NCBI GenBank assembly: GCA_031547365.1
Contig: JAVBSB010000052.1
Coordinates: 1-24,475, forward strand
From: Oscillospiraceae bacterium
GTDB taxonomy: Bacteria > Bacillota > Clostridia > Oscillospirales > Acutalibacteraceae
Direction of reading: 5' to 3'
Length of the DNA: 24,475 bases
Below the pieces are notes generated by a model. That model saw only the letters and a list, made by a program, of their open reading frames with translations. It searched no databases and was not told the DNA's origin. Every line of letters begins with the position of its first letter. Position 1 is the first letter of the stretch. The translations under genes were made by a program, and so were the position numbers. Positions 2,972 through 22,294 of the stretch are shown here, one piece after another.

Positions 2972-3679
2972 TTATAAATTTATAATGCGTGCTGCCAGCA
3001 CGGTGCGTGCGCCGTCGAACTGGTAGGAGCAAGTGGACAGTAAAACGATTTGATCAGTCTGTGTCACTCCAATATCGCGGAACTGCTTTGCCTGCCGTTC
3101 CAGCGATTGCAGCAGCGCGCGCTGTTGTTCACCGCTGCGGGGCAGGGAATAGGTGACAGAGTCGGCGGCCTTGACCACGGCGCAGGCAAAAAACTCCAGC
3201 TTAAGCTTGCGGCTTGCCAGATATATCTCACCGGTCGGGTGTTGGTTGAAAAACTCTTCATCTCCAAAGCTGACAATCGCATGAAACATGCTGCCGTTGC
3301 GCATATTGTGACCGTATAAAATGGTGTTTTTTCCGCTGAAGTCGGGTGCGCAGCGGTAGTCCATAAAGATGGTGCCTGCCGTTGCGCTTTTACCGTGCAG
3401 GTCGTGGCGCAGATACGTCTCATTGTCGTTTGTCTGCACAAACGGGTACTCCACCTGTGTGCCGGAAATGCTCAGCCAGCCCACTACGTCTCGGTTCATC
3501 TCCTGCAGCTTTGTGACTTGCGGGTTTTCGCCCTGCGCATCCGAAGGCTTATAGCGCAACGCTTCTTCGTACATCTCGCTTTGCTGCTTATACGTTTCAT
3601 TGATGCGCCATAATTGCCAGCCGCTAACCGCAAGCACCGCAGTCAAAATCAGGGCGGCAACAACGCGCCAGGGCTTCAT
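2972..3679 (-). CDS. srtB: Class B sortase
   Basis: GWLSISGTQVEYPFVQ, GTIFMDYR, ILYGHNMRNGSMF, catalytic LSTCSY and RTVL. Start refined to ATG 3679 (RBS AAGGAG, ATGA overlap with the upstream stop). Confidence 0.92.
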   Translation of the reverse strand: MKPWRVVAALILTAVLAVSGWQLWRINETYKQQSEMYEEALRYKPSDAQGENPQVTKLQEMNRDVVGWLSISGTQVEYPFVQTNDNETYLRHDLHGKSATAGTIFMDYRCAPDFSGKNTILYGHNMRNGSMFHAIVSFGDEEFFNQHPTGEIYLASRKLKLEFFACAVVKAADSVTYSLPRSGEQQRALLQSLERQAKQFRDIGVTQTDQIVLLSTCSYQFDGARTVLAARIINL

Positions 3680-4983
3680 GCTTTGCTCCTTTTCTTCGGA
3701 TGCCAGAACAGCAGCGCGCGAAGACCTATCGCGCTGCATATCATCGCGCAGAACCATGGCAGGTAATTGCTCGGGTCGCCTGTCTTTGGGCTGCCGCCAA
3801 CTCCATTTGAGCCGCCATTTGCCGCCGCGGTTGTGCTGCGGGTCATTGTGGTTGCCGGAGTTGTTTCGGGATTTAGGGTGGTTTTGGCTTCCGTAGCAGT
3901 CAACGATACCGATTCTCTGGTTGTAGAGGTTGCGGACCGTGTAGTGCTTGTAATCGGCAGAGTTGTAGGTACGGTTGTAGTTGTGGATCGCGCTGTGGTG
4001 GTAGTAGGCGGTTCTGTACTAGTGGGCGGTTCCGTTGTCGTTTCGATTGGCGCTGTGGTTGTCTCTCCGGGATCTGTAGAGCTTTCGCCGGGATCTGTAG
4101 AGCTTTCGCCGGGAATCGTGGTCGTTTCCCCTGGGTCTGTCGTCGTTGGTTCCGGTTCGCTTGTAGTCGGCTCCGGCGCGGTGGTCGGCTCCGGTTTTTG
4201 ATATAAAGTATTGGTTATATATGTATTGATCACGCCGCCTGTGCCGGTACCGAACCCATTGTCTACGCTGACCGCATATCCTTCCGGTACAGGATTGGCT
4301 TCGCGCACGTCGTACTGTACGCCGAAGGGCAGGTTATAGGTTCGCGTTTCACCGTGCTTCAGCGTTATGGTTTCGCTGGCACCGTCCAGAATGACAACGA
4401 TTGCGAACGGTTTATTCAGATTGCCTGCGCCTGCCACAACCTTTCTTATCACCAGCTGTGCGGCGCCGTGCTGGTCCGGATAACCAAAGGTGTTTGTAAA
4501 AGCGGCGACTGTTCCGCCGGCAGGTATGTTGGCGTGATGGTTTGTGCTGCTGACCGTATAGCCCAGGCTGTCGGTTTCCACTAAGGTATATATTGTACCC
4601 TCGGGTAAGTTTTCAATAAGAGCGGCCTCGCCATGCTTAAGTTGGAATGTGCCGCCGCTGCTGATGTTGCTCACGGCTTCGCCGATCCGCAGGGGATATG
4701 ACGCAGTTGTATCAAATTCAATCCTATAGGTAAATGCAAGCTGTTGCTGTAGGAGCGTGAGCGGGCTGCCGTCGTCATTGATGACCGTATTTGTGACAAT
4801 CAGACCCTCAAAATCCTGCGGCGCAGCGGGGCTGTGTATGCCGGAGGCTGCGTTTGTGCGGTGCTGCCGCAAATCTGACCAGGCCATGGTTCCTGTGATA
4901 ACGGCAGAAAGTACAAAAATTGACGCCAGAATCGCTGCGCAAAGCTTTACTTTTAGACTGCGCGCGTTATTGCCTGTTGGCAT
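3676..4983 (-). CDS. Cell-wall-anchored protein with a SipW-type N-terminus, two beta-rich domains, a Thr/Pro/Glu-rich stalk and an SPKTG sorting signal
   Basis: N-terminus ...VITGTMA/WSDLRQHRTNAASG. C-terminus SPKTGD + hydrophobic stretch + PKKRSKA. ATG 4983 with RBS AGGAGG at 4992-4997. Confidence 0.85.
   Translation of the reverse strand: MPTGNNARSLKVKLCAAILASIFVLSAVITGTMAWSDLRQHRTNAASGIHSPAAPQDFEGLIVTNTVINDDGSPLTLLQQQLAFTYRIEFDTTASYPLRIGEAVSNISSGGTFQLKHGEAALIENLPEGTIYTLVETDSLGYTVSSTNHHANIPAGGTVAAFTNTFGYPDQHGAAQLVIRKVVAGAGNLNKPFAIVVILDGASETITLKHGETRTYNLPFGVQYDVREANPVPEGYAVSVDNGFGTGTGGVINTYITNTLYQKPEPTTAPEPTTSEPEPTTTDPGETTTIPGESSTDPGESSTDPGETTTAPIETTTEPPTSTEPPTTTTARSTTTTVPTTLPITSTTRSATSTTRESVSLTATEAKTTLNPETTPATTMTRSTTAAANGGSNGVGGSPKTGDPSNYLPWFCAMICSAIGLRALLFWHPKKRSKA
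4067..4114. repeat. Coding 21-bp tandem repeat (2 exact copies + partial) inside a 7-aa-periodic stalk
   Basis: CCGGGATCTGTAGAGCTTTCG at 4067-4087 and 4088-4108, encoding PGESSTD x2. Degenerate neighbours include PGETTTI, PGETTTA and EPTT. Confidence 0.9.
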
Positions 4984-5011
4984 GGGAACCACCTCCTGTC
5001 ATTGAAATCCG

Positions 5012-5037
5012 CCTGCGGGACAACGATGCCCCGCAGG
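5012..5037 (-). other. GC-rich intra-operon stem-loop without U-tract
   Basis: CCTGCGGG (5012-5019) / CCCGCAGG (5030-5037), directly after the stop of 5049..6032. Confidence 0.6.
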
Positions 5038-5048
5038 TCTTATTAATA

Positions 5049-6032
5049 TTAAGGCTGCGCCGGTGTGATACCGTATGCGGTCAGTACTTTCGCGGGCGCG
5101 CCGGTAAATGCAGCCGTGACGTCGGTGCTGTCTGCGGCGTCCATGTCAACGTGAACGGCGTAATAAAACGCGCCTGCGGGCGACTGAATGAGTGTGATTG
5201 ATTCCAGCAGCTTTGCGGTGGCTTCGCCGGGATTTAGCTCCTGCCCCCAATACGCCCAGCCCTCCGTACTGCTGTCGTCCAAAATCCATTTGGCAGCGGC
5301 TGTGCCGTCCCAATTGCTTAACTTTACAACCTGTGTCCCCAGCGCCCACTCCACATACTGGTGGAATGGGTCTGCCGCGGCGCTGTTCCAGCGGTGCGGC
5401 GTGTAGAGGCATTCGCCGGCGGCGTGGGCTGCGCGGTCGGGGTTATATGCTGCGCGCGTTACGCCGGGAACCAGAGAGGTTTTCGCGCCGGCAGCGGCAT
5501 AGCTGAGAATCATTTTTTTGCCATAGAGCCCGTTGTACCTTGTGTTTTCGTCGGTTGCATAATAGTAACGCGCCGCCGTATCATTGTAGGCTTTATATTG
5601 CTTGATCTGTGCGTCATTTATGATTAGCCGGGGGTAGTTTGCGGTCAGCCAGACCTTTAGGTTTGCTGCTGTATCCGCGGCTGCAAAGCTGCCGTCGCTG
5701 TGCACAAGCAGATACTCGCTCGTATAAGTGTAGTCCACCTGCGCGACATCCATAAACTCTTTCAGCTGCATACGGATAAACACTTTACCTTCGCCGCTGT
5801 TTTTGACCCAAACTTTTTTTGTCAGGGTTTCGTCGGTATTCCACTCGTCAGGCTGTTCATAATCTTCAATCAGCACAACATCCTGTAAGGCGGTGCTGCC
5901 GTCGCCCGTAGCAATATTGGTTTTGTGCTGGCTGTGGTCCTTCCATGCCCAGGTTCCGCCGAGGATGCTCAGCAGCGTGAAAAGCGCCGCAAAAAGAGCC
6001 AACGCTTTACGATGGGATGATATAAAACGCAT
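5049..6032 (-). CDS. BsaA/TasA-like SipW-dependent biofilm matrix/fibre subunit 2
   Basis: SipW-type signal ...ILGGTWA/WKDHSQHKTNIATG. KKVWVKNSG..VFIRMQLKE and GWAYWGQELNPGEATAKLLESITL blocks. Clear paralogue of 8505..10082. Confidence 0.8.
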   Translation of the reverse strand: MRFISSHRKALALFAALFTLLSILGGTWAWKDHSQHKTNIATGDGSTALQDVVLIEDYEQPDEWNTDETLTKKVWVKNSGEGKVFIRMQLKEFMDVAQVDYTYTSEYLLVHSDGSFAAADTAANLKVWLTANYPRLIINDAQIKQYKAYNDTAARYYYATDENTRYNGLYGKKMILSYAAAGAKTSLVPGVTRAAYNPDRAAHAAGECLYTPHRWNSAAADPFHQYVEWALGTQVVKLSNWDGTAAAKWILDDSSTEGWAYWGQELNPGEATAKLLESITLIQSPAGAFYYAVHVDMDAADSTDVTAAFTGAPAKVLTAYGITPAQP

Positions 6033-6068
6033 AATAAACTTCCTTCTTTCGCCAAAGGTAAAGAGCTT

Positions 6069-8432
6069 TTACGAGGCTATCTGCGTGCCGAGCAATTCGC
6101 TTTTTACCCATACGGCAACGCGGTAGGGTTTGCTCAGCGCGGGTGCGGCTGAACTGAGCGTACCGGCAGGCGTAGCTGAGCCGTCAACAAAAGCGACCTG
6201 TGTGTTGTTGTCCGTACGCAGCCAATAATTCTGTTTGGTTCCCAGCTTGCCGTAGTTCGCCAATGCTTTCGGGTTGGAGCTGGTCGTATTATACTTCGCG
6301 CTGCAAAAACGCGCCGCTTCGCCGTAACTGAGCGCAAAGCCGATGTCGTTCGTCGTTAAGCCGTTATTCAATACGCTGTTGGGTATGCTCAAATTAGCAG
6401 CAGAGCCATATGTGCCCATTTTGCTCATTGCGTTGTGGGTGACCAAATAACTGCGAATAGGGGAGTTTGAGGGCAAGGTGCTCTTCATAAAGGTATTGAC
6501 CGCTGTGCGCATTGCGCCGGAGGTATACCCGGTTGCCGTTGCGCCGGCATCGATTTGAGCTACGCGCAGCATCAAGCTGTAGCGCTGTTCGAAAATATCG
6601 GAGTAGGACGCGATTTCGATCCAGGCGGAGCTGTCCTTCGCTTCGGACGCGCTCAAAGTGCGGCCGGTACGGGGCGCGGGCGTGCCGAGGTTGTCCGGTT
6701 CCGGGTCCAGCGGCCAGGGGTTGAATACCGTTTTCACGCCGTTAACCAGCGGGATTTCGACTGTCATATTGTTAATGATATGCTTTGCATACGCGACCGT
6801 ATCAGTGGCTGCGATTGGATTTGGGGTAAATACCAGTTCGGTGGTCCCTACTGCTTCCCAAGTGCCGTCGCTCATCACGAACCAAAAATATAAGCCTTCC
6901 GGGTCAAATGGGGTGCCGTTAATTTGCTGAATCGCCTCGCCCGAAATTGCCAGTCTCACTGCGGTGGCAGGCGGCGGAGGCGCTACGCCGTTAGTCAGCG
7001 GAACGATTGTATACATACTGTTATAGAATACATAAACTTCCGTTGTATCCGCTGCAATTTTTGAGGGGAAAAAGCTGCAATCCGCAAGGTCCACCGGAAC
7101 CCGGCTGGAATCGCTCATTTCAAGGAAAAATTCAATGTTGGTGCCGATAAAGGACTTTCCGATGATTTGCTCTACAGCCGTACCCCAATGGTTAAAGCCG
7201 GTGACCGTCGGGGTTGGCGGGACGACAATGGGCGTGGTGCCTTCGATTTGCAGCTTGTATGCTACGGCGGCATAGACTGTATGGCTTATGCCCCATTTAT
7301 CGGTCACTTGACCGACAACACCGGTAAAGCCGGGTTGTGCGCCCTCCTTCGGCGTAATGCGGTTGCCCGATACGGTGATGAAGTCATCCTCTCCGCCGAC
7401 CGGAGCCCAGGCAATGGCACCTGTTCCGTTTAAGGCTGCGGAAATATCCGAGCCCTCTTCGTCCAGCAGCAGCATACCAAGATGCGGCAGACCAACGGTA
7501 TTGATGCCGTCCGGCTTCGCGACCTGATAGTTTGCGCGTCTTCCGTATTTACCTGTCAGTGTAGTGGAAATAATCTGCGTAATTCCGGGTGCGTTCCCGG
7601 TTACGTCAGCAGAGCCTGATGTTATCTTCAGGACGCTCGCGTGCTCGTTGTATGAGCTGATCCATCGAGCCTGTCCCGGCATTTTTTCCGTTACGGTGCT
7701 GCCCACGTCCAGCTGCTTATAGCTGGGGTTTGGATTTGTAAAGCTGTAGCACGTATTCCCTGCGGACAGGGAAAGCTCCGTGCCGCCGTCGTCTGCTTCA
7801 ACTCCATAGGCGACGGTAAAATAAATTGATTGTGTTATACCGTATTTATCCATAAATGTGCCGCGCGCGGCTGTTATGCCGGGCGTGGCATTTGTTTTCA
7901 CAGTAATTTGCTTTCCGGATACAGTGATAATATCATTGTCCCCGGCTTGTGGCTCCCATGTAATGCTTGACTCCAGCCCCGAAGGAACCGTTGTAACCGG
8001 AATTTCGGCTTCGGTGTCACTGAGTCCGATCGTTGTTGAGGCGCTGCTTAAAACGACAGACGATATTCCGTCTGCATTGTATATCTGATAGTTTGCGCGC
8101 CTGCCAATTTTTCCTGTCAAAGATGTGGAGATGATCTGTGCTACACCGGGGGAAATACCTGCAACCTCGGCAGTGCCGGAGGTCAGCTTCGTAGCTTGGG
8201 CAATTGCGGCGTTGGTACTGGTCCAATATCCCTGCCCGGGCATTTTTTCTGTTTCGGTGTCGCCAACGGCAAGTTGCTTATAGCTTGGGTTTGGATTGGC
8301 ACAATCGACTCGTACCGCAGGCGCAAGTTGAACAGCCAGGGTTGCGCTAACCAAAGCAATCACTGCCGAAACAGCGATTGCCGCAGCCACAACGATTGCA
8401 ATCAATCGTTTGTTCCGCTTATGCGTTTTCAT
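6069..8432 (-). CDS. Large exported repeat protein, putative adhesin (Ig-like repeats + DUF6273-like C-terminus)
   Basis: Basic + hydrophobic N-terminus ending VSATLA. Two ~187-aa repeats starting NPNPSYKQL (codons at 8297 and 7736), two ~70-aa repeats ending VPLTNGV / IPLVNGV, and C-terminal FALSYGEA...YWLRT...RVAVWV. Confidence 0.7.
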   Translation of the reverse strand: MKTHKRNKRLIAIVVAAAIAVSAVIALVSATLAVQLAPAVRVDCANPNPSYKQLAVGDTETEKMPGQGYWTSTNAAIAQATKLTSGTAEVAGISPGVAQIISTSLTGKIGRRANYQIYNADGISSVVLSSASTTIGLSDTEAEIPVTTVPSGLESSITWEPQAGDNDIITVSGKQITVKTNATPGITAARGTFMDKYGITQSIYFTVAYGVEADDGGTELSLSAGNTCYSFTNPNPSYKQLDVGSTVTEKMPGQARWISSYNEHASVLKITSGSADVTGNAPGITQIISTTLTGKYGRRANYQVAKPDGINTVGLPHLGMLLLDEEGSDISAALNGTGAIAWAPVGGEDDFITVSGNRITPKEGAQPGFTGVVGQVTDKWGISHTVYAAVAYKLQIEGTTPIVVPPTPTVTGFNHWGTAVEQIIGKSFIGTNIEFFLEMSDSSRVPVDLADCSFFPSKIAADTTEVYVFYNSMYTIVPLTNGVAPPPPATAVRLAISGEAIQQINGTPFDPEGLYFWFVMSDGTWEAVGTTELVFTPNPIAATDTVAYAKHIINNMTVEIPLVNGVKTVFNPWPLDPEPDNLGTPAPRTGRTLSASEAKDSSAWIEIASYSDIFEQRYSLMLRVAQIDAGATATGYTSGAMRTAVNTFMKSTLPSNSPIRSYLVTHNAMSKMGTYGSAANLSIPNSVLNNGLTTNDIGFALSYGEAARFCSAKYNTTSSNPKALANYGKLGTKQNYWLRTDNNTQVAFVDGSATPAGTLSSAAPALSKPYRVAVWVKSELLGTQIAS

Positions 8433-8467
8433 CAGGTTACCCCCTATAAAAAGTGAACAACCAGCCG

Positions 8468-8485
8468 GGGCGGCTTGCGCCGCCC
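8468..8485 (-). other. GC-rich intra-operon stem-loop with GNRA loop, no U-tract
   Basis: On the - strand: GGGCGGC-GCAA-GCCGCCC, 19 nt after the stop of 8505..10082. Confidence 0.6.
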
Positions 8486-8504
8486 GCAGCAGATTTTTCA
8501 GTTG

Positions 8505-10082
8505 TTATTTATACATGTTGATGACGGTGAAGTCAGCGGTTTTGCCGGAAACGGAATCGGTGAGCGTAATCACGACGGGGACCTCCAGTATCCAGCCTGT
8601 GCCGTCGACAAAGTTATCTTCATTTAAGAAATCAACCCAGCTCATTAAGCATTTGGAGATAATCTTGCCATTGCTGATATAAATATCCGAGCTGGTGTAG
8701 GCATAACCGCTGGGGCTCTGGATATTGGTAATTTGAATGTCTGTAAGATTGACGCCCTGTCCGGAGACGATGATGTTGCCAAGCGGGATTTCGATGTGTC
8801 CTATTGCGCTGAACAAAGCGGCTTCCTCGTAGTCCAGGGTCATTTCCCAGTCTTCTTCGTCCCAAGGCTCGAACGTATCGGGATCCTGTGTCTGTGCATT
8901 GAAGAAAATGCGATCGTTTGAAGTAGCAGGTCTGTAAGAGGTTGAAAGTAGGTTGAGCGCAAGGTCGCCTGTGCCGCCTGTGCTGGTGGCGGCTTTCAAT
9001 GCTGCCACAACTGTGGCGTTGTCTGTCGCCCAGCCATCCAGACCCGCAAAGTCAACCGCTTCCATATCCGCGTGTACTGCATAGTAGAAGTTGCCGTCGG
9101 GCTGTTTATCGAGCTTCATCGTCTTAAGTAAATTTTTTGTGCTTGCGCCCGGCAGAACCGCTGCGCCCCAATATGCCCAGGCGTCGGTTGTTGTTCTGTC
9201 GTCAAGAATCCACTTGTTAACGCTTTCGCCGCCGCCTGTAATCCAATCGGAATAAAGAATCACATCAGCGCCGAGCTGCCACGAAATATATTCGCGGAAC
9301 GCATCGGATACCCCGCCGGTTTTCCAAGTGTGGGCGGTGAACCCGCATTCGATGTCGGAGCCATTTTCGTGACCGTAATCTTTGTCGTTGATCAACGCGT
9401 GGTCAACTGCGGTTGTGCCGTCTACAGTGACAGCGGTTGCGCCGGCAGAACCGCCTGCGACGGGGAGTTTGCGGCCGTACTGACCGTTGGGATCGCCTGC
9501 TTTTGTGCGGACATAGTAGTACTCAACCGTGTCATTGATTCCCTGCGCCAAAACGAAGTCCGCAGCCGTTAATGCCTGGACATAATCGCTTGCGCTGCCG
9601 CCGTTAACAACGTTTGCCCACTGCGCGTCGTTTTTGATGGTGGTCAGGTTTGCGGGGACAGAGGGATCAAGCGTTGCCGCAAAGCGTACGAATAAGCCGT
9701 CTGTACGTTGAATCAAAAACAGAGAAGGCTTCGTTTGGCTGTTTTCAATAAAATAGTCATAGGAGACCGCAGTGATATCCATGTATTCTTTCAGCGAAAT
9801 GCGCGTATAGATGCTGACGTACTCGTCGTCGTCAAACTGTGAGGTTCCGCCGATATTTTCAACGCGGATCTCTTTGGTGACGGGCGGATCGGATGTTTTC
9901 CAGTTCTTCGAGTTCTCAAAGTTTTCTACCAGATTGGCCATTGCCAGGGTACCCTTGCCTTCGTTGTGACCGGTTGCCTGGTCAAATTTTACGAAAGCCG
10001 CGTATGTGCCGCTGACCAATATGGCCAGCACGATCAGGGCGGCCGCCGCTGCAGCCAGACGTTTCTTGGTTTTGCTTTGCAT
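8505..10082 (-). CDS. BsaA/TasA-like SipW-dependent biofilm matrix/fibre subunit 1 (with C-terminal extension)
   Basis: SipW-type signal ...ILVSGTYA/AFVKF. KEIRVENIG, YTRISLKEYMD, WAYWGAAVLPGASTKNLL and FYYAVHADMEAVD blocks. RBS AAGGAG. Lies immediately downstream of sipW. Confidence 0.82.
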   Translation of the reverse strand: MQSKTKKRLAAAAAALIVLAILVSGTYAAFVKFDQATGHNEGKGTLAMANLVENFENSKNWKTSDPPVTKEIRVENIGGTSQFDDDEYVSIYTRISLKEYMDITAVSYDYFIENSQTKPSLFLIQRTDGLFVRFAATLDPSVPANLTTIKNDAQWANVVNGGSASDYVQALTAADFVLAQGINDTVEYYYVRTKAGDPNGQYGRKLPVAGGSAGATAVTVDGTTAVDHALINDKDYGHENGSDIECGFTAHTWKTGGVSDAFREYISWQLGADVILYSDWITGGGESVNKWILDDRTTTDAWAYWGAAVLPGASTKNLLKTMKLDKQPDGNFYYAVHADMEAVDFAGLDGWATDNATVVAALKAATSTGGTGDLALNLLSTSYRPATSNDRIFFNAQTQDPDTFEPWDEEDWEMTLDYEEAALFSAIGHIEIPLGNIIVSGQGVNLTDIQITNIQSPSGYAYTSSDIYISNGKIISKCLMSWVDFLNEDNFVDGTGWILEVPVVITLTDSVSGKTADFTVINMYK

Positions 10083-10154: not shown

Positions 10155-10892
10155 TTAAACGTTTTTGGTTCGTCTTGTTTTTTTCTCTTTCTTTTTTCTT
10201 GGCTTCCTTTCGCCTTCCTGCTTTTTTTCTTCCTTGCTTTTTCGCGGCTTACCTAAAGCAATGCGCAGGAAGAAAGACAGCGCCAGCAATCCGCCGAACC
10301 ACAGCAGTATCAGCAAGAGATGATCCTTTACGAACTGCAAAATGCTCCCAAGCAGGGGGATGGATAAAATGACTACGCCCAGCACATTGTCCGCGTGCGT
10401 GATATCCAGGTCCGGAGAAATGTTTTCGACGCCCTTTGTTTCAAAGCCGCGCTTGCCGTTTTCATCAAAGTTGCCCAGAATGCCGACTACCTTATGGGTT
10501 GTGGTTTTATTGCCGTTATTTGAAAAGAAGGTGATGTTTTGACCAAGCTTTATCAGGTTGGGGTCGGTTTTTTTGACCAGTACAAGCGAGCCCTTCGGGA
10601 TTTCGCGCTGCATACTGCCGGAAAGGACGTTAAAGACATAAAAACCGGCGATATCCCGTGCGCCTCTGTCCCCCGCGTTGGTAGCGCATATGACCGCGAC
10701 AAAGCAGGCAAGGACCAGCGCGACACAAAAGATGATGTTTGACACAGCCTTCCAAACGACCTTGCTCTTGCCTGTGCCTTTCGGTTCCGGCGGCGCGCTG
10801 TGGCATGCGCCGGACTCAAGCATAGTCAGCAGCTCGTCAACAAAAGCTTCATCTTCAAGGTATTCATCAATATATACCTCTGGCACCATCAT
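10155..10892 (-). CDS. sipW: Signal peptidase I, SipW (ER/archaeal type)
   Basis: NVLSGSM (catalytic Ser codon 10614-10616), TTTHKV (His codon 10494-10496), ETKG..N..D, two TM segments and a Lys-rich tail. Start moved to 10892 because the promoter at 10942-10970 lies inside the longer ORF call. Confidence 0.9.
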   Translation of the reverse strand: MMVPEVYIDEYLEDEAFVDELLTMLESGACHSAPPEPKGTGKSKVVWKAVSNIIFCVALVLACFVAVICATNAGDRGARDIAGFYVFNVLSGSMQREIPKGSLVLVKKTDPNLIKLGQNITFFSNNGNKTTTHKVVGILGNFDENGKRGFETKGVENISPDLDITHADNVLGVVILSIPLLGSILQFVKDHLLLILLWFGGLLALSFFLRIALGKPRKSKEEKKQEGERKPRKKKEKKTRRTKNV

Positions 10893-10941
10893 AACTTTTT
10901 TACATTCCTGTGTTTTTATTTTCCGGCTTTCACACGCTATC

Positions 10942-10970
10942 ATTGTAACGTGTGAATGTATAAATGTCAA
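10942..10970 (-). promoter_or_regulatory. SigA-type promoter of the sipW operon
   Basis: TTGACA (10970-10965), 17 bp, TACAAT (10947-10942). Confidence 0.8.
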
Positions 10971-11105
10971 CAAAGTCAGTGTGCTAATAGGTGAAGAATG
11001 CGGATATAAAAACACATAGCACAAAATATGGAAACGTCTTTGTAATTCGATGCCAGTTTCTGAAACGCGCCTGCTAACATATTCCAGAGATAAATCGCTA
11101 AGCTT

Positions 11106-11166: not shown

Positions 11167-14100
11167 TTATCCGTAGCAGGTACGATTGATAATAACTTTC
11201 TTTAAGTCGTCCGAAAGCTCGTTAAAATAGGCGCAGTAGCCCGCCACGCGCACCATCAGGTATTTATATTTTTCGGGGTGGTTATAGGCGTCGAGCAGCA
11301 GGTCGCGGCTGATGATATTGGGCTGGAATTGCATCCCGCCGGTGGTCAGAAAAGTCTTGAAGATTCCGCCGAGGTTCTTAACGCCCTGTTCGCCGGGGAA
11401 CAGCGCTGCGTCGATGGTGAACGTTGCGGTGGTACCGTTTACGGCGTAGTCGGTAAAGTTCACCTGCGCCAGCGCGTTAAGGGAGCTGAGCAGATCCGCC
11501 TTTTCCATGCCGTAGTGCGGCGCGACGCTGTTGGCCAAAGGCACGCCCTTACGCCTGCCGGAGGGCAGCGCCTGCGTCTTAATACCATATCGATCGCTGA
11601 CGTTGAGCGCGTAATAGCCTGCGGTGTATTGTCCGTTGCGCAGCGCATAGGGACACGCCTCAAGCGCTTCGTTATATATCTGCATCACGCGGCTGACCCA
11701 GCTTGCGGCGTCAATTGAGCTGTCATCGCCAAACTTGGGAACCGCCAATAAATCCTTGCGCAGCGATTGATGCGCTTCACCCTCAAAGTTCGCGTCGATC
11801 GCCTGTATCACCTGCAACAGACTGTATTTTTTCTGCTTGAACACCAGCTCGTCAATGGCATACAGCGAATCCGCAACGTCTGTCACGCCGACTGCCTGAA
11901 TGCCCGCGGTGTTGTATTTTGTGCCGCCCTCATATGCGTCCTTGCCGCTTTCCATGCAGCCCCGATACAGCGACGAAGCCAGCGGCGTTGTGTAGTATTC
12001 GCGCAGCGCCCTTTCGATGGTCTGCTGGTCGTCAAGAATGGATTTCGCAAGGGCGTTCAGCCGCGCCTTAAAGCGCGAGAGCAGCTCGGTCATGTCCTTC
12101 GGCGGGTTGTATTCATATAGCCCGCGCTTTCTGTTTCGTTTAACAATAGCTTTTTCGCGCCGTTCGGCAAGGTCGGGCTTCGCGAATTCGATTACGCGCG
12201 TGACCATTTTTTCTACCTGCAAGCCAAACCCGAAATTCCACAGGTCATGCTCATGCCCCTTCAGCGCCTGCAGCAGCGGCAGGGCAAGGTTCATATTGGC
12301 GCTGTCGGTGTTGCCAAAGTGGTCGTCGCTGGCAACAGGCTCCACGCAGCCAACGATGGAATAATTGCGCGCGTTTTCGATCGTAGTGTCATAGTGCTTT
12401 GTTAGGGTGTCAAAGTAGATGTTGTCGCTGAACAGCTCCGGCATTGGGCAGCCGTTGATGTATATTTCCGCAAGTCTGTCAAGGTAACGCGCGGGATTTT
12501 TTTCGTGGATGCGGGCGCACATATTGATGGCTAAGGGCTGCAGCTCGCAGGCGTCAATGCACATGTAGGTCACGTCGTTGACGGCGTCGTTGCCGTCTTT
12601 GTCTACGCCGCCGAAGGTCAGAGCCTGGTCGACGGAAAGCGTCTCAAACAGCTTACTGACGTTCAGCAGACCGTCGCCGTCGTTGACAAGTATTACTTCA
12701 TCCATCTTCAGCACAAACAGGCACAGCAGCTCTTTTGCTTCTTCATAGGTAATGCGCCCGGCCTCCAGGTCCCGCCTGAAGTATGGAAATAATATCTGGT
12801 CAATTCGGCCGAACGACACCGCGTTTTCATAAGCTTCGATGCACAGCGCAATCTGAAGAAACAGCATGCTCTGCAGCGCCTCGTGAAAGGTGCGCGCGGG
12901 GTGCTTTGGCACGCGGCGACAGATTGCTTCCATTTTTTCAAGCTCAGCCCTTCGCGTACGGTCGCTCTCGTTGACCGCCAGCGTGCGCAGCGCCTGCGCA
13001 TATCGCTCTGCCCAGATTTCCAGGGCGTCCAGCGCAATCAAAACGCCTCTGTAGAAATCCTGGTTATTTTCAGGGTGCGCCTTTGCCATGGCGCGGGCTT
13101 CTGCCTTCAGTCCCGTTGTACCCAGCTCCAATATGCGTTCAAAGTTAACGACATAGTGGGCAATGGCGGCAAAGTTATTGTTAAAGCCGGTGGAGGTTTC
13201 CGCAATGCGCGCCAGATTCAAAAAAAGCTTGCCGAAGCTGGTGTGTCCGCGCATGACGGTGCTTTTGTTGAGCCAGTAGGGAAAAATATGCTTGTAAAAA
13301 TAGCTGCGCTCCTCCTTCGTGGAGCTAAAGGCAACGGGTGTTTGCTTTGCTGCCTTGTAGAGAAAGGTGACATACAGCGTACCATATTGCTCCTCCCAGA
13401 TTTGCCCCGCAACACGCTTGCTTGTGAAGTTGCCGACCAGCAGCTCGCCGGGATAGACGATGGTTTTTTTTCGCCCCAGCACATAGTGCAGGCGCTGTGC
13501 GCGGTGAATTGCGACAGGCTTTTTGAAGCCGTCATATTTTTTATAGTACTCTGTCTTGAGCCTGGAAACTTCAAAGCAAATGGAGCGTTCGCTTTCGCGT
13601 ATGGCGCTCTGAATGTCCAGTACACGCTGCGTGAATTGTGCCTGCGGCGGATTTTCAGCAAGGTCGTCGTTGCGGGCGGAAACGCCGTATTGCCGGAACA
13701 GGTCAATTCCTTTTTTCAGCGAAAACAGGCTTTGCTCCGGCGTAATGTTCAGCTGCGGTATTTCCAGGTCCAGCCGCGCCGCTTTGCCCTCGTACATGTT
13801 GTGGTACTTCATCAGCTCAATTTGGTCAAAACCGAACGATTTGATATACTCTGCCGCAGCCTTAATCTGCGCTTCGCTGTCATTTAAGCCCGGCACCATC
13901 AGCATGCGTATCCTTAGATTCGCGCCCCGCGCAACGAGCTTTTCAAAATTGCCGTGTATGAGCTTGTCGTCCTTACCTGTCAAGTCCTTATGTACCTGCG
14001 CGCTGCCGACGAGCTTCAGGTCAACGAGAAAAAGATCAATATATGGCAGCAGCGCCTCTATGGTTTTCCACGGCGCACAAAGAGCGGTCTCTGCCGCTAT

Positions 14101-14430
14101 ATGGATGCCCTTGTCTTTTAGCAGAACCAACAATTCTTTCAGGCTGTCTTTGTCCTGCAAAAACGGTTCGCCGCCCGAGAGCGTAACGCCGCCCTGCGAT
14201 TGCGTATAGTATTTTTCATCTCGAAGCACCAATTCCGCAATCTCTTGCGCGGAGAGAATTTCATCACCCTCCTGCGGCAGGCGAGAAAGAATTTCGGGGT
14301 TTTGGCACCACTGACAACGCAGCGCACAACCTCTAAAAAATAGAGTCGTGCGCAGCCCGGGACCGTCGTGTACGCAGCTGCGTTGCACGCGGACGACATT
14401 AAGCCTTGTTTTTGTCTGAACCATTGGCAT
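11167..14430 (-). CDS. Fusion of glycyl-radical activating enzyme (radical SAM) and glycyl radical enzyme (PFL-like family, non-PFL)
   Basis: aa 1-~260: HDGPGLRT, CALRCQWC, GGVTLSGGEP. aa ~267-1087: GELLVGN, IVGCVEP (Cys695), RVAGY (Gly1064). One uninterrupted ORF with RBS AGGAGG at 14438-14443. Confidence 0.93.
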   Translation of the reverse strand: MPMVQTKTRLNVVRVQRSCVHDGPGLRTTLFFRGCALRCQWCQNPEILSRLPQEGDEILSAQEIAELVLRDEKYYTQSQGGVTLSGGEPFLQDKDSLKELLVLLKDKGIHIAAETALCAPWKTIEALLPYIDLFLVDLKLVGSAQVHKDLTGKDDKLIHGNFEKLVARGANLRIRMLMVPGLNDSEAQIKAAAEYIKSFGFDQIELMKYHNMYEGKAARLDLEIPQLNITPEQSLFSLKKGIDLFRQYGVSARNDDLAENPPQAQFTQRVLDIQSAIRESERSICFEVSRLKTEYYKKYDGFKKPVAIHRAQRLHYVLGRKKTIVYPGELLVGNFTSKRVAGQIWEEQYGTLYVTFLYKAAKQTPVAFSSTKEERSYFYKHIFPYWLNKSTVMRGHTSFGKLFLNLARIAETSTGFNNNFAAIAHYVVNFERILELGTTGLKAEARAMAKAHPENNQDFYRGVLIALDALEIWAERYAQALRTLAVNESDRTRRAELEKMEAICRRVPKHPARTFHEALQSMLFLQIALCIEAYENAVSFGRIDQILFPYFRRDLEAGRITYEEAKELLCLFVLKMDEVILVNDGDGLLNVSKLFETLSVDQALTFGGVDKDGNDAVNDVTYMCIDACELQPLAINMCARIHEKNPARYLDRLAEIYINGCPMPELFSDNIYFDTLTKHYDTTIENARNYSIVGCVEPVASDDHFGNTDSANMNLALPLLQALKGHEHDLWNFGFGLQVEKMVTRVIEFAKPDLAERREKAIVKRNRKRGLYEYNPPKDMTELLSRFKARLNALAKSILDDQQTIERALREYYTTPLASSLYRGCMESGKDAYEGGTKYNTAGIQAVGVTDVADSLYAIDELVFKQKKYSLLQVIQAIDANFEGEAHQSLRKDLLAVPKFGDDSSIDAASWVSRVMQIYNEALEACPYALRNGQYTAGYYALNVSDRYGIKTQALPSGRRKGVPLANSVAPHYGMEKADLLSSLNALAQVNFTDYAVNGTTATFTIDAALFPGEQGVKNLGGIFKTFLTTGGMQFQPNIISRDLLLDAYNHPEKYKYLMVRVAGYCAYFNELSDDLKKVIINRTCYG

Positions 14431-14462
14431 ATGCTCGCCTCCTGTTGTGATTGATTATCCTC

Positions 14463-14491
14463 ATTATAGCATAACACCAATAAAATATCCA
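14463..14491 (-). promoter_or_regulatory. Extended -10 promoter of the GRE fusion gene
   Basis: TGCTATAAT (14471-14463) with TGGATA at 17-bp spacing (14491-14486). Confidence 0.6.
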
Positions 14492-14521
14492 GCTCTTAAT
14501 AGGATAATGTTAAAAAAAATC

Positions 14522-14550
14522 TTGCTTTCCGGCACAAGATATAGTATAAT
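14522..14550 (+). promoter_or_regulatory. SigA-type promoter of the DivIVA-like operon
   Basis: TTGCTT (14522-14527), 17 bp, TATAAT (14545-14550). Confidence 0.6.
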
Positions 14551-14608
14551 ATATAATGTATAGGACTATATTCATTCGCAAGTCGATGAAAAAAGAAAGG
14601 TATGGATT

Positions 14609-15295
14609 GTGTCAATGAAGGATGACTATCTGCCAAATGAAAAATATCGCAATATGTTCGGAGTAGAGCGCAACGGTTATGGTTGTGAGCGTGTAGACCT
14701 TTATCTTGCGCAGCTGGAAGTTGCGTTTAAAAAAATTCGCGAGGATAACCGCAACCTCAAGCGTGAGCTGACAGAGCAAAGCCCTGCGTATACAGGGGCA
14801 GCCTCCCCGCGCGAGGGCGAGTTGATTGCGCAATTGGAGCAGCAGGGGCAGTACATAATGCAGCTGCAGGCGCAGCTGGCGGAACAGCAGGAGTATAGCC
14901 GCCAGATGACAGGGACGCTCGATATTAACGCAGATAATCCTAACGACGCGCTGCTTGTGCAAATAGAGGCCTTGCGCGGCGAGGCAGACGCATTGCGGCA
15001 GCAATTGCGCCGCCAGGCAACCGGCGCGCCGGCGGTAAACGAAGAGGAACAACAAAATATGATCGGCAAAGTGCTGGTCGAAGCGCGCTCGCAAGCGGAA
15101 GAAACCTTGCGCAACGCAAGGCAGGAGTCCGACGCTATGATGCGCAAAGCCCGCCAAAAGGTGGAGGAGCTGCGCAGCGAACAAGAACGCGTCCAGAGCC
15201 AGCTGCAGGCAATATCTTACGGTTTGCGCAACGTTTTGCGTGGTACTGCGGGTGCGGAATATCAACAGCGGGGTGAAGATTTTGCGGCATCTTGA
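14609..15295 (+). CDS. DivIVA-domain coiled-coil protein
   Basis: N-terminal FGVERNGYGCERVDLYLAQL matches the DivIVA F..RGY..EVD.FL motif. C-terminal LVEARSQAEETLRNARQESDAMMRKARQ resembles the DivIVA C-terminal coil. GTG start with RBS AGAAAGG (ATG 14615 is an alternative). Confidence 0.75.
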   Translation: MSMKDDYLPNEKYRNMFGVERNGYGCERVDLYLAQLEVAFKKIREDNRNLKRELTEQSPAYTGAASPREGELIAQLEQQGQYIMQLQAQLAEQQEYSRQMTGTLDINADNPNDALLVQIEALRGEADALRQQLRRQATGAPAVNEEEQQNMIGKVLVEARSQAEETLRNARQESDAMMRKARQKVEELRSEQERVQSQLQAISYGLRNVLRGTAGAEYQQRGEDFAAS

Positions 15296-15989
15296 AAAGA
15301 AAACAACCGAGCTGTCTCCTGAAGCCAGAGCCTTTATAGACGAGGTCGATCAGCTGGCGGGCGAAGTGCTTGTCGCAGACAAAGAATTGGCTATGCCCAT
15401 CAGCCGAGAGCACGCAAAAAGAATGAAAACGCTGGCTAATGTTTTTTATGTTGTTGTAGTTGTGCTGGGCTTGCTGGTCGGGTTTGTACTGCTGCTCAAC
15501 CGTTACGCAAGCAACGGTATACTTGGTATGCGCTTTTTTGTGGAGCAGACCAACGCCATGAATACAACGGTGCCGCGCGGTTCACTGCTGGTCACCGTAA
15601 CGCGCTCGAGCGAAAAAATCAAGAAAAACGACATTATAACCTACTATGCCGTTCAGACGGATCCTGACACCCGCCTGACCCGTATCGTAGACGAGTGCTT
15701 AAAAACCAACGGCATTCCTTTCTTTCGCACAAGGCGCGCAGGCAGCGCGCAGCCGGACAGCATGCTGATCAATATGACGAACATTCTCGGCGTAAAGCTG
15801 GCAATCATACCTTATGCCGGTTATGTCATATCGTTTATACAGACCTATGCATACGGATTTGCGGTGCTGGCGGCCGCGATGTGCGTTGCTGCGATTGCGC
15901 TGCGCCGCTGGTCGTTTAAGGAACATCCCGAAATGAAAAAGAAGCGGAAAAAGAAGAACAAAGGAAAGGTGCGTCATGCGGACGTATAA
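15282..15989 (+). CDS. SipW-like (peptidase S26) protein, probably catalytically inactive
   Basis: Co-linear with SipW: VPRGSLL, IKKNDIITY, NILGV, IPYAGYVISF, two TMs and a Lys-rich tail. SGSM is TNAM and THK/RV is LTRIV. TTG start at 15282 with RBS GGGGTG. Confidence 0.75.
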   Translation: MRHLEKKTTELSPEARAFIDEVDQLAGEVLVADKELAMPISREHAKRMKTLANVFYVVVVVLGLLVGFVLLLNRYASNGILGMRFFVEQTNAMNTTVPRGSLLVTVTRSSEKIKKNDIITYYAVQTDPDTRLTRIVDECLKTNGIPFFRTRRAGSAQPDSMLINMTNILGVKLAIIPYAGYVISFIQTYAYGFAVLAAAMCVAAIALRRWSFKEHPEMKKKRKKKNKGKVRHADV

Positions 15990-17259
15990 CTCGGAAGAAT
16001 CGCTGCCCAAGCAGGCGATCGCTCTGCGCGTTCGCATTCTTCGGTTGCGCATCAGCACTTTTTTTGCAGGCAGACGGATTCGTTCGCTACGCAGTAAAGA
16101 GCAATCGAATATCATTCCGCGCCGCTGGCCTTTTGTAGGGTGCCTGCTGCTTTGTCTTGGCGCGGTTGTGTCCGCGATTGTGCTGTCGGTTTTAGCGAAC
16201 ACGCAGCCGCAGCTGCATAATCTTGACGGCAGCTTTGCGAGCGTGGATAAAGTGGTTATCCTGGACCCGAACAGCAAAGACGAAACGATGCTTTCTGCGG
16301 GCTATTTGTACGACAGACCGATTGCGGTTGTGCAGACCGGTACTGACCCGGTTCTGCTGCGCATCCGTCTGGAAGAAACGCTGCTTACTGCCGCGCACGA
16401 TGAAAACGGTCGCGTTGTGTCAGTCAAGCCTATGATTGACCCGGGCGAAAACTGGGAGCCGCGCATGATTGAACAGGATGCGGCTTTGGAAATTCTGCGT
16501 AAAAATGGGTACTGCAAGGCGACCGACACATGGGACGATGCGCTGGAACTGAAATTGCCCGAAGCGCGGATGCCGGGCGGCAACGACGGCGGCCGTCTAA
16601 TGGTGTTTGAGAAAAAAACTGTGATCGCCGACCCCGATTCACCCATCCCTGACATCAGCGTGATGCGTCCGGAGGACATTGAAGCCTATGATTTAGGCAA
16701 GACTTCTTATGATTATATTGGATTTTATTATATCAACGTTGGCGGCAAGCAATATTATCAACCGCTGCATATTGCTGTAGATGATGATGCGCCGCGCAAT
16801 CCGACGCAAAGCCCTCCGAATATTACGAACATATCCTATGAGTTTTACCAGTGGGATATAAAGGAATCGCAGGTACATCAGTTCGGCGCGGAGCAAAACG
16901 GACCGGTCAATTTGCAGCTGGGTCATCTGCGCCCGATTGCTGAATGGACAAAGCCGGAGGATGCATGGTTTTATGACATAGACGGCTGGGTATACTACGG
17001 GCAGGCGCTGTCGTCCGGTTTGATGACCCCTCTGCTGCTGCAAAGCTTTTCTGTTGAGCCCGAAAGCCCGCTGGTACAAAACGAAACGCGCTACCGCCTT
17101 GGGGAACGCGCACAAAGCGTTTCGCTTGATTTGAACTCGGTCATATCCATTTGGAATAGCAACACACCGCTTGGCACGCTCGGCACGAGCAACATGAGCA
17201 ACGAATCGCTGCGGCTGGTGCAGGGTATTTTAAGCGCGGCAGGAATAAAAGAAGAATAA
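15976..17259 (+). CDS. BsaA-like paralogue with an Arg-rich cytoplasmic N-terminus and a TM anchor
   Basis: VVQTGTDPVLLRIRLEE and DGWVYYGQALSSGLMTPLLLQSFSV align to blocks in 5049..6032 and 8505..10082. Hydrophobic segment at about aa 52-73. RBS AAAGG. Confidence 0.7.
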   Translation: MRTYNSEESLPKQAIALRVRILRLRISTFFAGRRIRSLRSKEQSNIIPRRWPFVGCLLLCLGAVVSAIVLSVLANTQPQLHNLDGSFASVDKVVILDPNSKDETMLSAGYLYDRPIAVVQTGTDPVLLRIRLEETLLTAAHDENGRVVSVKPMIDPGENWEPRMIEQDAALEILRKNGYCKATDTWDDALELKLPEARMPGGNDGGRLMVFEKKTVIADPDSPIPDISVMRPEDIEAYDLGKTSYDYIGFYYINVGGKQYYQPLHIAVDDDAPRNPTQSPPNITNISYEFYQWDIKESQVHQFGAEQNGPVNLQLGHLRPIAEWTKPEDAWFYDIDGWVYYGQALSSGLMTPLLLQSFSVEPESPLVQNETRYRLGERAQSVSLDLNSVISIWNSNTPLGTLGTSNMSNESLRLVQGILSAAGIKEE

Positions 17260-17267
17260 AGTCTTCC

Positions 17268-18122
17268 ATGTTATATTATAGTGCCGGGAGGGGCAATCAT
17301 ATCAAACGCGTTGCCGTAATACAGGATATCTCCGGGCTGGGACGCTGTTCGCTTGCGGCGGCGTTGCCGGTGCTTTCTGTGATGGGTATGCATTGCTGTC
17401 CCGTACCGACGGCAGTGTTGACGAATCAGACTGGCTTTCCGCGCTATGCGTCGCTTGACTGCGGCGCTATGCTGCGCGAATTGCCTGCGCTTTGGAAAGA
17501 AAATAAAGTTGCGTTGGATGGCATTTATGCGGGGTTTATGTCCTCGCAGCAACAGTTTGACGCCGCGCAGGCTGTGATTGATGCCTTCCGCAGACCCGAT
17601 ACCCTGCTGTTGATTGACCCGGTAATGGGAGACAACGGTAGCCGCTATCCGTGCTTTGATGCGGCGTTTTGTGATAAGATACGTACATTTTCCGCGCAGG
17701 CGGATATTCTTACCCCGAATGTAACAGAGGCTTGCCTGTTGGCGCAGGCGGATTATGAAGCTTTTATTAAAGGAACGGTACAGCAGCAGGAACGAGCCTT
17801 GCGTGAAATCTGCGAAGCCTTGCCCGCAAGGGCTGTGGTTGTCACAGGCTGGCGCAAAAACGGTATGATCTGTAACGCGGCGTGGCAGGACGGCGCTTTT
17901 AAATGCTACGAAAGCCCTGCGGAAAAAGGCTCTTACTCCGGAACAGGGGATTTGTTTGCGTCTGTGCTCTGCGGCGGCTTGTTGCGCGGCGAAGGCTTGG
18001 AGCAATCAATTTTGCTGGGCATGCGCTTTTTAGAGGCTGCGCTGCGCGACGCTGTGCATGAAGGTCTGCCGGAGGCGGAGGGGGTTCCGTTTGAACGTCA
18101 CTTAAAGGAGTTGCTGGCTTGA
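17268..18122 (+). CDS. pdxK: Pyridoxal/pyridoxamine kinase (start may be ATC at 17301)
   Basis: RVAVIQDISGLGRCSL, PVPTAVLTNQTGF, IDPVMGDNG, LTPNVTEACLL and the ribokinase-family anion hole GTGDLFAS. Confidence 0.88.
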   Translation: MLYYSAGRGNHIKRVAVIQDISGLGRCSLAAALPVLSVMGMHCCPVPTAVLTNQTGFPRYASLDCGAMLRELPALWKENKVALDGIYAGFMSSQQQFDAAQAVIDAFRRPDTLLLIDPVMGDNGSRYPCFDAAFCDKIRTFSAQADILTPNVTEACLLAQADYEAFIKGTVQQQERALREICEALPARAVVVTGWRKNGMICNAAWQDGAFKCYESPAEKGSYSGTGDLFASVLCGGLLRGEGLEQSILLGMRFLEAALRDAVHEGLPEAEGVPFERHLKELLA

Positions 18123-18637
18123 AGCGTGCTTCGCTTTTTCATTTAATTTTGACCGCGCTGTTTGCGGCTTTGATTTTGGTTTTTACCGCCTACATCGGGC
18201 ACATTCCCCTGCCGGGTACAAACGGGTTTATTCATTTTGGAGACGCGCTGATTTTTTTGGCTGCCAGCCTTTTGCCAAAGCCCTACGCCGCGGCGGCGGG
18301 ACTGTTGGGCGGCGGGCTGGCAGATCTGCTCACTTTTCCGTCTACGACTGTCCCGACGATCGTTATCAAGGGCTGTGTTGCGCTTTGTTTCAGCGCGAAA
18401 CCGGAAAAAATCCTTTGCCCGCGCAACACGCTGGCGCTGCTGCCCGCAGGGTTGGTTACGCTGGGCGGCTATTATGCGGCAGGCGGTATCCTTTTCGGAT
18501 GGACTGCGGCATTGGCGCAGGGTCTGACAGCGAACGCAGTGCAGGTGCTTGGGAGCTCGGCGATTTACATCCTGCTGGGCTTAGCGACGGATAAGATACA
18601 GCTGAAGCATAAAATGAAGCAATGGAGCAAGCCATGA
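18119..18637 (+). CDS. ECF transporter S component (TIGR04002-like; vitamin B6 substrate inferred from context)
   Basis: Multi-TM protein with GFIHFGDALIFLAA and GGGLADLL. Overlaps the pdxK stop. Confidence 0.8.
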   Translation: MKRASLFHLILTALFAALILVFTAYIGHIPLPGTNGFIHFGDALIFLAASLLPKPYAAAAGLLGGGLADLLTFPSTTVPTIVIKGCVALCFSAKPEKILCPRNTLALLPAGLVTLGGYYAAGGILFGWTAALAQGLTANAVQVLGSSAIYILLGLATDKIQLKHKMKQWSKP

Positions 18638-21188: not shown

Positions 21189-21217
21189 TTGACAAACCGT
21201 GTTATATCAGTTAAGAT
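21189..21217 (+). promoter_or_regulatory. SigA-type promoter of the sigma factor gene with an upstream A-tract (UP-like)
   Basis: TTGACA (21189-21194), 17 bp, TAAGAT (21212-21217). A-rich tract at about 21161-21183. Confidence 0.75.
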
Positions 21218-21251
21218 ATGTCTGTACCGTTTGAAAGGCGTAAGGTTTGCG

Positions 21252-22293: not shown

Positions 22294-22294
22294 C

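Follow-up and report, generated by a model that had tools for sequence, protein, structure and literature searches.

We analyzed a 24,475-nucleotide stretch of DNA from a termite-gut Oscillospiraceae bacterium (contig JAVBSB010000052.1 of assembly GCA_031547365.1; hereafter the window), and in it three overlapping plus-strand genes, gene 1, gene 2 and gene 3, that follow a spacer at 14431-14608 (Table 1). They encode a divergent DivIVA-domain protein, a catalytically dead homologue of SipW-type signal peptidases and a membrane-anchored relative of the BsaA/TasA fiber subunits, and they are contiguous in 13 of the 15 species of one uncultured Oscillospiraceae genus from termite and other invertebrate guts. 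The source genome is metagenome-assembled (1.18 Mb, 69% complete), and the sequencing runs that contain DNA of the locus are labelled invertebrate gut metagenome. Gene 1 overlaps gene 2 by 14 nucleotides (nt), as does gene 2 gene 3, and Shine-Dalgarno-like sequences precede the starts of genes 2 and 3. Gene 4 begins 8 nt past gene 3 and gene 5 overlaps gene 4 by 4 nt; the operon probably runs on into these two conserved downstream genes. The initial annotation of this DNA had described three overlapping genes behind a promoter of their own, a DivIVA domain in the first protein, a peptidase without catalytic residues and a subunit without a cleavable leader. The overlaps and the three protein descriptions were borne out by the analyses below. 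The promoter was confirmed in part: its -10 element TATAAT is perfect and the RNA contigs begin at 14599, but the -35 element TTGCTT matches at only three of six positions, hence its omission by the promoter scan.

Predicted proteins of the three genes

Gene 2 has its longest frame from 15240, with TTG 15282 behind GGGGTG as the likely start. The product shares 24% identity with the active SipW of the window (E 5e-12) and falls below the curated cut-offs of TIGR02228 (36.0 vs 51.85 bits) and NF046067 (42.7 vs 190 bits). We aligned 12 orthologues with six active enzymes and inspected the copies of genomes G013 and G015 besides. The nucleophilic serine of the S-x-S-M motif (SGSM), which the active SipW paralogues retain, is alanine in 11 of the 12 orthologues and valine in the twelfth, and alanine again in G013 and G015; with alanine in place, SGSM has become T-x-A-M. 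The catalytic histidine of T-H-R/K is arginine (L-T-R) throughout, so that both residues are lost in all 14 orthologues read; the catalytic aspartate is invariant. Two new blocks, GLRFFVE-T-AM and SRLTR, are conserved across species whose copies are only 35-60% identical, which argues for selection and against decay. Intact frames and the recurrence of the same two substitutions likewise suggest purifying selection, as does the nearly invariant N-terminus of gene 1.

Gene 2 is predicted to have an acidic cytoplasmic N-tail, then a first transmembrane helix (TM1), a beta core, C-terminal transmembrane helices and a basic tail, a topology in keeping with its hydropathy profile. The AlphaFold2 (AF2) model, with a mean predicted local distance difference test (pLDDT) of 78.5, likewise contains a cytoplasmic helix, a transmembrane helix, a beta core and C-terminal helices. 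Its top Foldseek matches in the PDB were human SEC11 (7p2q and 7p2p; probability 1.0, target TM 0.57-0.61), followed in third place by Streptococcus pyogenes SipA (4n31).

Gene 3 starts at ATG 15976, preceded by GGAAAGGTG. Its residues 1-50 hold 13 arginines or lysines and 3 aspartates or glutamates, and hydropathy places a single hydrophobic helix at 50-77. The AF2 model (pLDDT 87) consists of a helix at 12-43, a transmembrane helix at 51-75 and a beta domain at 93-421, a conserved beta-sandwich ectodomain of about 350 residues. The SipW-cognate leader (TIGR04088; ...G-T-[YWF]-A-[WAY]-[FW]) was not matched; across the orthologues the -3 and -1 positions are variable and form no conserved A-x-A site, and a basic tail of 50 residues precedes the transmembrane helix. 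A juxtamembrane motif, P-x-L-R-x-L-x-G, is conserved in the low-confidence linker where the cleavage region would lie.

Pairwise, gene 3 resembles the subunits of the window weakly (E 3e-4 to the 327-residue protein), and it reaches 16 bits on the BsaA-family model TIGR04090 (cut-off 60), in the C-terminal block only. A profile of its orthologues, searched against 1.84 billion representative proteins, returned 14 clusters below 1e-30, and the full-length members read among these have the signal-anchor architecture of gene 3. The next tier (P0054-P0065; E 4.5e-33 to 6.5e-13) is made up of secreted proteins that have the classic ...GTYAWF leader. Nine of them were tested on TIGR04090, and eight gave about 60-85 bits, at its cut-off or no more than 0.5 bit under it. 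With these secreted relatives gene 3 shares the LLR-R-EE and WFYD-DGW-YYG-L-PG blocks, the most conserved of the BsaA family. One relative of gene 3, P0059, lacks the AWF leader and sits at the start of its contig. The AlphaFold database (AFDB) clusters that best match the gene 3 model are labelled camelysin/TasA-type, alternate-signal exported or SipW-cognate signal peptide (probability 1.0). A Foldseek search of the PDB gave nothing below E 0.03, with the TasA fiber at rank 30; the fold assignment rests on sequence profiles and AFDB clusters because the PDB matches are only generic.

Gene 1 more likely starts at ATG 14615 than at GTG 14609, because its orthologues share an MKEDY start. Its predicted product scores 33 bits on Pfam DivIVA (PF05103), above the gathering score of 28 (E 6.7e-8); in a six-frame search of the genome with the same model, the best single segment of gene 1 reached only 24.8 bits. 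An hhalign comparison of 12 gene 1 orthologues with 10 canonical DivIVAs gave a probability of 90.3% (E 1.5e-6) over 40 columns, and the N-terminal signature F-x5-GY-x3-VD-x-[FY]L and the start of the coiled coil lie in register with canonical DivIVA. Residues 7-51, like the N-terminal 46 residues, are nearly invariant across the genus, in which the whole proteins are 48-69% identical. Hydropathy found no transmembrane segment.

The gene 1 domain is a diverged one. The membrane-inserting F17 and R18 of Bacillus subtilis DivIVA (PDB 2WUK is its F17A protein) correspond to an invariant Arg21 and to Asn or Gln at position 22 in the gene 1 orthologues. Searched against the PDB, the gene 1 profile retrieved no DivIVA, GpsB or Wag31 chain and only coiled-coil noise, whereas the canonical DivIVA profile does retrieve DivIVA (2WUJ), GpsB and Wag31. 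A separate, longer canonical DivIVA is present in each genome, on contig 135 in the source genome, and the candidate identification of gene 1 as the housekeeping DivIVA was rejected for this reason. Judged by its sequence, gene 1 is a DivIVA-domain protein in which the lipid-binding feature is absent, because the F17/R18 tip is replaced. Curvature sensing is established for B. subtilis DivIVA, and the N-domains of GpsB and DivIVA are adaptors that dock the cytoplasmic tails of bitopic envelope proteins.

Conservation, transcription and genomic setting

Of the 15 other genomes in the genus, 14 have gene 3, which was seen in none of 25 genomes searched from further genera of the family and order. 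The dead-peptidase profile reaches 317-361 bits within the genus, against a maximum of 86 bits in 298 genomes from 184 other genera; we read most of these outside matches, and all keep the serine, and the histidine wherever its motif was found. Nor was the trio found in these 184 other genera of the family. A narrow peptide-pattern search gave 11 loci, all in metagenome-assembled Oscillospiraceae bacterium genomes and several on the same contigs as the genomes of the genus. P0054-type secreted subunits, sought in the genus as partners of gene 3, were not found, the best match in each genome being gene 3 itself. Every genome with the trio contains 3-14 SipW-type matches, several of them above the family cut-off, and a single trio. 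The trio is conserved as a unit, and to this extent the interpretation in the initial annotation is supported.

Where the contigs are long enough, genes 1 to 5 are collinear. On the left side of gene 1, by comparison, the neighbor varies from genome to genome (LigD, a ferredoxin-like protein, a GH38 mannosidase, an activase-like protein), and in the window it is a glycyl-radical enzyme fusion. Neither sipW, its subunits nor the glycyl-radical gene lies upstream of gene 1 in 12 other genomes, over up to about 13 kb as the contigs allow. The block is bounded on its left by gene 1, and its position opposite the sipW operon is peculiar to the source genome; the second, divergently oriented module of the earlier description is therefore an accidental feature of one genome.

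Of the sampled words of 14400-18700, 73% were present in one metatranscriptomic run from the same study. These data are assembled contigs, which indicate presence and a likely 5' boundary, neither a single transcript nor a quantitative level. One contig (14599-16563) starts 10 nt ahead of the first start codon, 49 nt beyond the -10 element, and spans genes 1 and 2 into gene 3, and word depth jumps from 1.4 to 10.4 across 14597. A second contig (16613-17316) crosses the junction of genes 3 and 4. Depth was 10-13 over genes 1 and 2, 5-8 across the remainder of gene 3 and 0.4 within gene 4, with the DNA run nearly flat over the locus at about 6.5; gene 4 is probably co-transcribed at a lower level. 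Within the last part of gene 3 a weak hairpin and a T-run occupy 17209-17232, and RNA depth drops from about 5 to 0.4 just past the gene (17382-17938), which could reflect partial termination ahead of the vitamin-salvage genes. In the same sample, depth was 3-6 over the two BsaA-like genes of the neighboring operon and 0-0.3 in the sipW bins.

DivIVA-domain genes also accompany intact peptidases. Short open reading frames of this kind (F-x4-GY-x2-QV-x2-YI) lie directly upstream of SipW genes whose serine and histidine are both present, at seven loci in five species of the genus, with BsaA-like genes next in several of them. The pairing recurs in three other Oscillospiraceae genera (G048, G159 and G109), a fourth being doubtful. 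Since such genes are also placed ahead of active sipW genes, the trio seems to be a derived and frozen version of a recurring design that combines DivIVA, SipW and subunit. Both active SipWs of the source genome carry a cytoplasmic extension of about 45 residues before the first transmembrane helix, with an acidic amphipathic motif. The two motifs align with the N-tail of gene 2 (EARAFIDEVDQL, opposite EDEAFVDELL in the window's active SipW), and the acidic tail may be a shared docking site. Further SipW-family domains without the catalytic serine, histidine or both occur in related genomes (for example QSDAMQ with F-GRI) in architectures unlike the trio, and on contig 17 of G017 one such copy lies about 2 kb from an active SipW.

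The neighboring minus-strand operon joins an active sipW to BsaA-like subunits, a sortase and a sortase-anchored protein (Table 1); over the sortase/DUF7601 region (2972-4992) RNA depth was near zero. Between this operon and the trio, a single 1087-residue frame (11167-14430, minus strand) fuses a radical-SAM activase (Radical_SAM, Fer4_12) to a complete PFL-like glycyl-radical enzyme (PFL-like, Gly_radical), and it is transcribed (RNA contigs 11255-11687, 11987-12736 and 12869-13784). Farther right, a radical SAM protein with a SPASM domain (22241-23836, plus strand) follows a sigma-70-family gene (21189-21821).

Table 1 Features of the trio, its surroundings and related loci. Positions without a prefix are those of the window; nt, nucleotides; aa, amino acids.
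Feature	Position	Strand	Description
Promoter-like site	14522..14550	+	TTGCTT (14522-14527), 17-nt spacer, TATAAT (14545-14550); read from sequence
Gene 1	14609..15295	+	Divergent DivIVA-domain coiled-coil protein; 228 aa from GTG 14609, 226 aa from ATG 14615
Gene 2	15282..15989	+	Catalytically dead SipW-type (endoplasmic reticulum (ER)/archaeal-type S26) signal-peptidase homologue, 235 aa
Gene 3	15976..17259	+	Membrane-anchored BsaA/TasA-family protein, 427 aa
Gene 4	17268..18122	+	PdxK/ThiD-type kinase; Pfam Phos_pyr_kin
Gene 5	18119..18637	+	ECF-transporter S component; Pfam ECF-ribofla_trS
Active SipW	10155..11024	-	Likely start ATG 10892; TIGR02228 82.9 bits, above 51.85; SGSM and THK intact; acidic tail motif EDEAFVDELL
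Active SipW elsewhere in source genome	L003:466-1173 (contig 184)		Acidic tail motif NLFDVEDILDSV
Fiber operon downstream of sipW	2972..10082	-	
BsaA-like protein	8505-10082	-	525 aa
787-aa protein	6069-8432	-	
BsaA-like protein	5049-6032	-	327 aa
SPKTG-anchored DUF7601 protein	3676-4992	-	Thr/Pro-rich stalk, SPKTG sorting signal, leader like that of the BsaA-like subunits
Class B sortase	2972-3757	-	TIGR03064, 191 bits
DivIVA-live SipW loci	L119:883-2009; L120:1055-3472; L122:4792-5865; L123:1763-2915		
DivIVA-live SipW loci	L124:5713-6649; L125:1271-3637; L087:1027-2052; L088:746-1980; L134 (G109:C216)		
Other dead SipW-like domains	L157 (G017:C17:54500-57500); L166 (G010:C22); L158 (G018:C5); L161 (G004:C35)		L166, 891 aa; L158, 401 aa

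A possible membrane base and its alternatives

The data support directly which genes make up the trio, that catalytic residues are missing, what topology the products have and that the trio is conserved and transcribed; from this we infer the protein-protein contacts and the fiber link of the following model. With slightly less than even confidence, we favor the reading that the trio is a membrane base that anchors, terminates or nucleates fibers of the TasA/BsaA type. A permanent base is the simplest reading because a subunit that cannot be cut is translationally coupled to a peptidase unable to cut. The trio would be a copy of the three-part fiber-operon design in which enzyme and substrate were frozen into a permanent membrane complex. 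Gene 3, as a relative of fiber subunits, would have kept its ectodomain and be held in the membrane by an uncleavable signal anchor, while gene 2 would keep the fold and topology of a peptidase without cutting and clamp either the P-x-L-R-x-L-x-G motif of gene 3 or the leaders of incoming subunits, a role modelled on the one supposed for S. pyogenes SipA in sortase pili. The gene 1 product, a soluble and GpsB-like coiled coil, would bind the acidic cytoplasmic tail of gene 2 and the arginine-rich tail of gene 3 and so cluster or place the complex. Gene 3 may serve as anchor and terminator because the published BsaA model tethers the newest subunit by its uncleaved leader: unable to be cleaved, it would accept the free N-terminal donor strand of a fiber and stay, or else act as a nucleator. 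Nucleation, which the initial annotation had put forward, is no better supported than anchoring or termination. The ectodomain of about 350 residues would remain under the Gram-positive wall, which would fit a base better than an adhesin.

Several observations weigh against a fiber base. The proposed tie of the trio to fibers is an indirect one. The gene 3 model matches the solved TasA fiber 8AUR weakly (Z 5.0), with generic immunoglobulin (Ig)-like folds at Z 5-6; the candidate positions matched by spacing to the N35/E56/K74 isopeptide triad of BsaA are not conserved; and the arginine-rich tail is short or different in 2 of 13 orthologues. The unit is also not always whole. In G013, genes 1 and 2 lie on one contig and gene 3 alone on another, and in G015, the most divergent species, a dead peptidase (TDAM, SRLTR) stands alone before genes 4 and 5 (L108:3689-5258, G015:C51), genes 1 and 3 not being found there with the queries used. 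A conserved linkage to the neighboring sipW operon was considered and rejected, the adjacency being confined to this window; the trio forms a core block, present in one copy and in synteny with vitamin-salvage genes, whereas fiber operons are multi-copy, variable and located elsewhere. One conserved anchor would moreover have to accept the donor strands of many subunit families. A more elaborate form of the proposal, possible but doubtful, is that the trio is an undescribed dedicated base of donor-strand fibers, in which an uncleavable paralogue would capture the free strand, a pseudo-SipW would hold it and a DivIVA/GpsB-like adaptor would couple assembly sites to the cell interior; DivIVA-domain proteins would then be regular partners of SipW, live or dead, in Oscillospiraceae.

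The strongest competitor, although unlikely, takes the trio for a neofunctionalised relic of a fiber operon, now a membrane complex with a non-fiber job in the envelope, in cell shape or in surface sensing. Gene 3 would contribute a wall-buried ectodomain, gene 2 would be devoted to holding gene 3 and gene 1 would link the complex to the cell-wall machinery as a GpsB-like adaptor, much as GpsB and DivIVA N-domains are known to serve bitopic envelope proteins. Such a relic would suit a single-copy core block with conserved housekeeping neighbors (genes 4 and 5, and Maf nearby in the window) and a variable left flank, unlinked to sipW operons in other genomes; it would also suit the retention of gene 2 without gene 3 in G015, and an RNA depth that is higher over the trio than over the neighboring fiber genes, with the sipW bin at about zero. 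It accounts less well for an architecture that mirrors the live fiber operons of the same genomes, or for an ectodomain that keeps the most conserved blocks of the BsaA family, and the sole characterised dead signal peptidase of such a kind acts in pilus assembly.

We consider it quite unlikely that the trio is a regulator, in which gene 2, with gene 1, would pair or compete with active SipWs or their substrates and so time or place cleavage, gene 3 serving as a decoy substrate. A decoy needs no conserved ectodomain of 350 residues, SipW enzymes are not known to oligomerise, and genes 2 and 3 are so tightly coupled in translation that their products look like partners in fixed stoichiometry. 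What speaks for regulation is that gene 2 shares its topology and a similar acidic N-tail with the active SipWs of the genome, that 3-14 SipW-type matches per genome face only one trio, and that other SipW-family proteins without serine or histidine exist in related genomes, one of them beside an active copy (G017 contig 17). B. subtilis SipW is reportedly bifunctional (Terra et al. 2012, as cited in PMC4292775).

The initial annotation had gone further and inferred targeting to the pole or septum, where a DivIVA domain that senses negative curvature would fix fiber nucleation. This was an extrapolation from the presence of the domain and from the curvature sensing of B. subtilis DivIVA, and we regard it as very unlikely: the F17/R18 tip has become Arg and Asn/Gln in every gene 1 orthologue, the gene 1 profile misses the DivIVA, GpsB and Wag31 chains that the canonical profile finds, and each genome has its canonical DivIVA elsewhere. 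Decaying pseudogenes or a functionless chance arrangement, which the missing catalytic residues and the family scores below cut-off might suggest, are highly improbable and were rejected, being contradicted by intact frames, the same substitutions in 14 species, confident predicted folds and transcription as a unit.

Under the membrane-base reading, the trio bears on how TasA/BsaA-type fibers start, stop and attach to the cell. The BsaA study (PMC11580942) assumed an uncleaved leader as the tether, and an uncuttable subunit beside a non-cutting peptidase is the arrangement that such a tether requires. As such a membrane base, the trio would be a component that has yet to be described for fibers of this class. 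A dead signal peptidase as assembly chaperone, known only from streptococcal sortase pili, would then extend to the unrelated SipW lineage, and, if this is true, DivIVA-domain partners would give the SipW route of secretion and assembly a cytoplasmic organizer. The trio is restricted to a single uncultured genus from invertebrate guts, and the contacts among its proteins or with fibers are proposed ones.

Comparison with known systems

The initial annotation did not recognize the trio from any described system. This stood in that our literature search found no paper linking DivIVA-domain genes or proteins with SipW or signal peptidases; it needs amending in that a dead signal peptidase of pilus assembly is known. 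The closest precedent is S. pyogenes SipA (LepA; PDB 4N31), a homologue of signal peptidases without which pili do not polymerise (Young et al. 2014, PMC4049620). Like gene 2, SipA is membrane-tethered, has lost both catalytic residues, keeps the fold and the peptide cleft and is encoded with surface-fiber genes. Its lineage, however, is the bacterial Ser/Lys (P-type) one, and the pili it serves are built by sortases, whereas gene 2 is of the Ser/His ER/archaeal SipW lineage, has a C-terminal transmembrane region and an acidic cytoplasmic tail, and is encoded alongside a TasA/BsaA-type and a DivIVA-domain protein, its function being predicted from sequence and model. On its best matches, which are SipW/archaeal models and SEC11, gene 2 is an analogue of SipA rather than a member of its family.

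CoCoPALM systems, named but uncharacterised in Bell et al. 2024 (PMC11090510), resemble the trio in linking pilus-assembly genes of the signal-peptidase family to a cell-division-type coiled-coil protein (FtsB-like). They are centered on McrB/McrC GTPase homologues, none of which is present at the trio locus. For gene 1, the closest parallels are GpsB/DivIVA adaptors (PDB 2WUJ, 4UG3, 6GP7 and others), which share the short F-x5-GY-x3-VD-x-[FY]L N-domain followed by a coiled coil; gene 1 differs in being far diverged, at 33 bits to Pfam, without the F17/R18 tip and without a PDB match from its own profile.

Two further systems are built around an active SipW. In the tapA-sipW-tasA operon of B. 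subtilis, the low-abundance accessory TapA, a nucleator and chaperone, can drive TasA assembly by strand complementation (Roske 2023, PMC10151520); as is proposed for the trio, an accessory acts at the membrane, here in an operon organized around sipW (PMC10151520; Boehning 2022, PMC9674648). TapA is described there as processed to a mature form that has a complete V-set Ig fold, and it is not a signal-anchored TasA paralogue like gene 3; its operon has neither a pseudo-peptidase nor a cytoplasmic partner. In the sipW-bsaA-bsaB-bsaC cluster of Clostridium perfringens, a SipW-type gene stands beside BsaA-family genes (Obana 2020, PMC7395162; Kivimaki 2025, PMC11580942). BsaA fibers form by donor-strand exchange and their oligomers are membrane-anchored; in the published model, the newest, uncleaved subunit tethers the fiber by its leader and accepts the fiber's free N-terminal strand before SipW cuts (PMC11580942). 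In that cluster an active peptidase cleaves the subunits, which are released, and a DivIVA-domain gene is not part of the description, whereas the trio combines a dead peptidase with a permanently anchored subunit that carries a 50-residue cytoplasmic tail.

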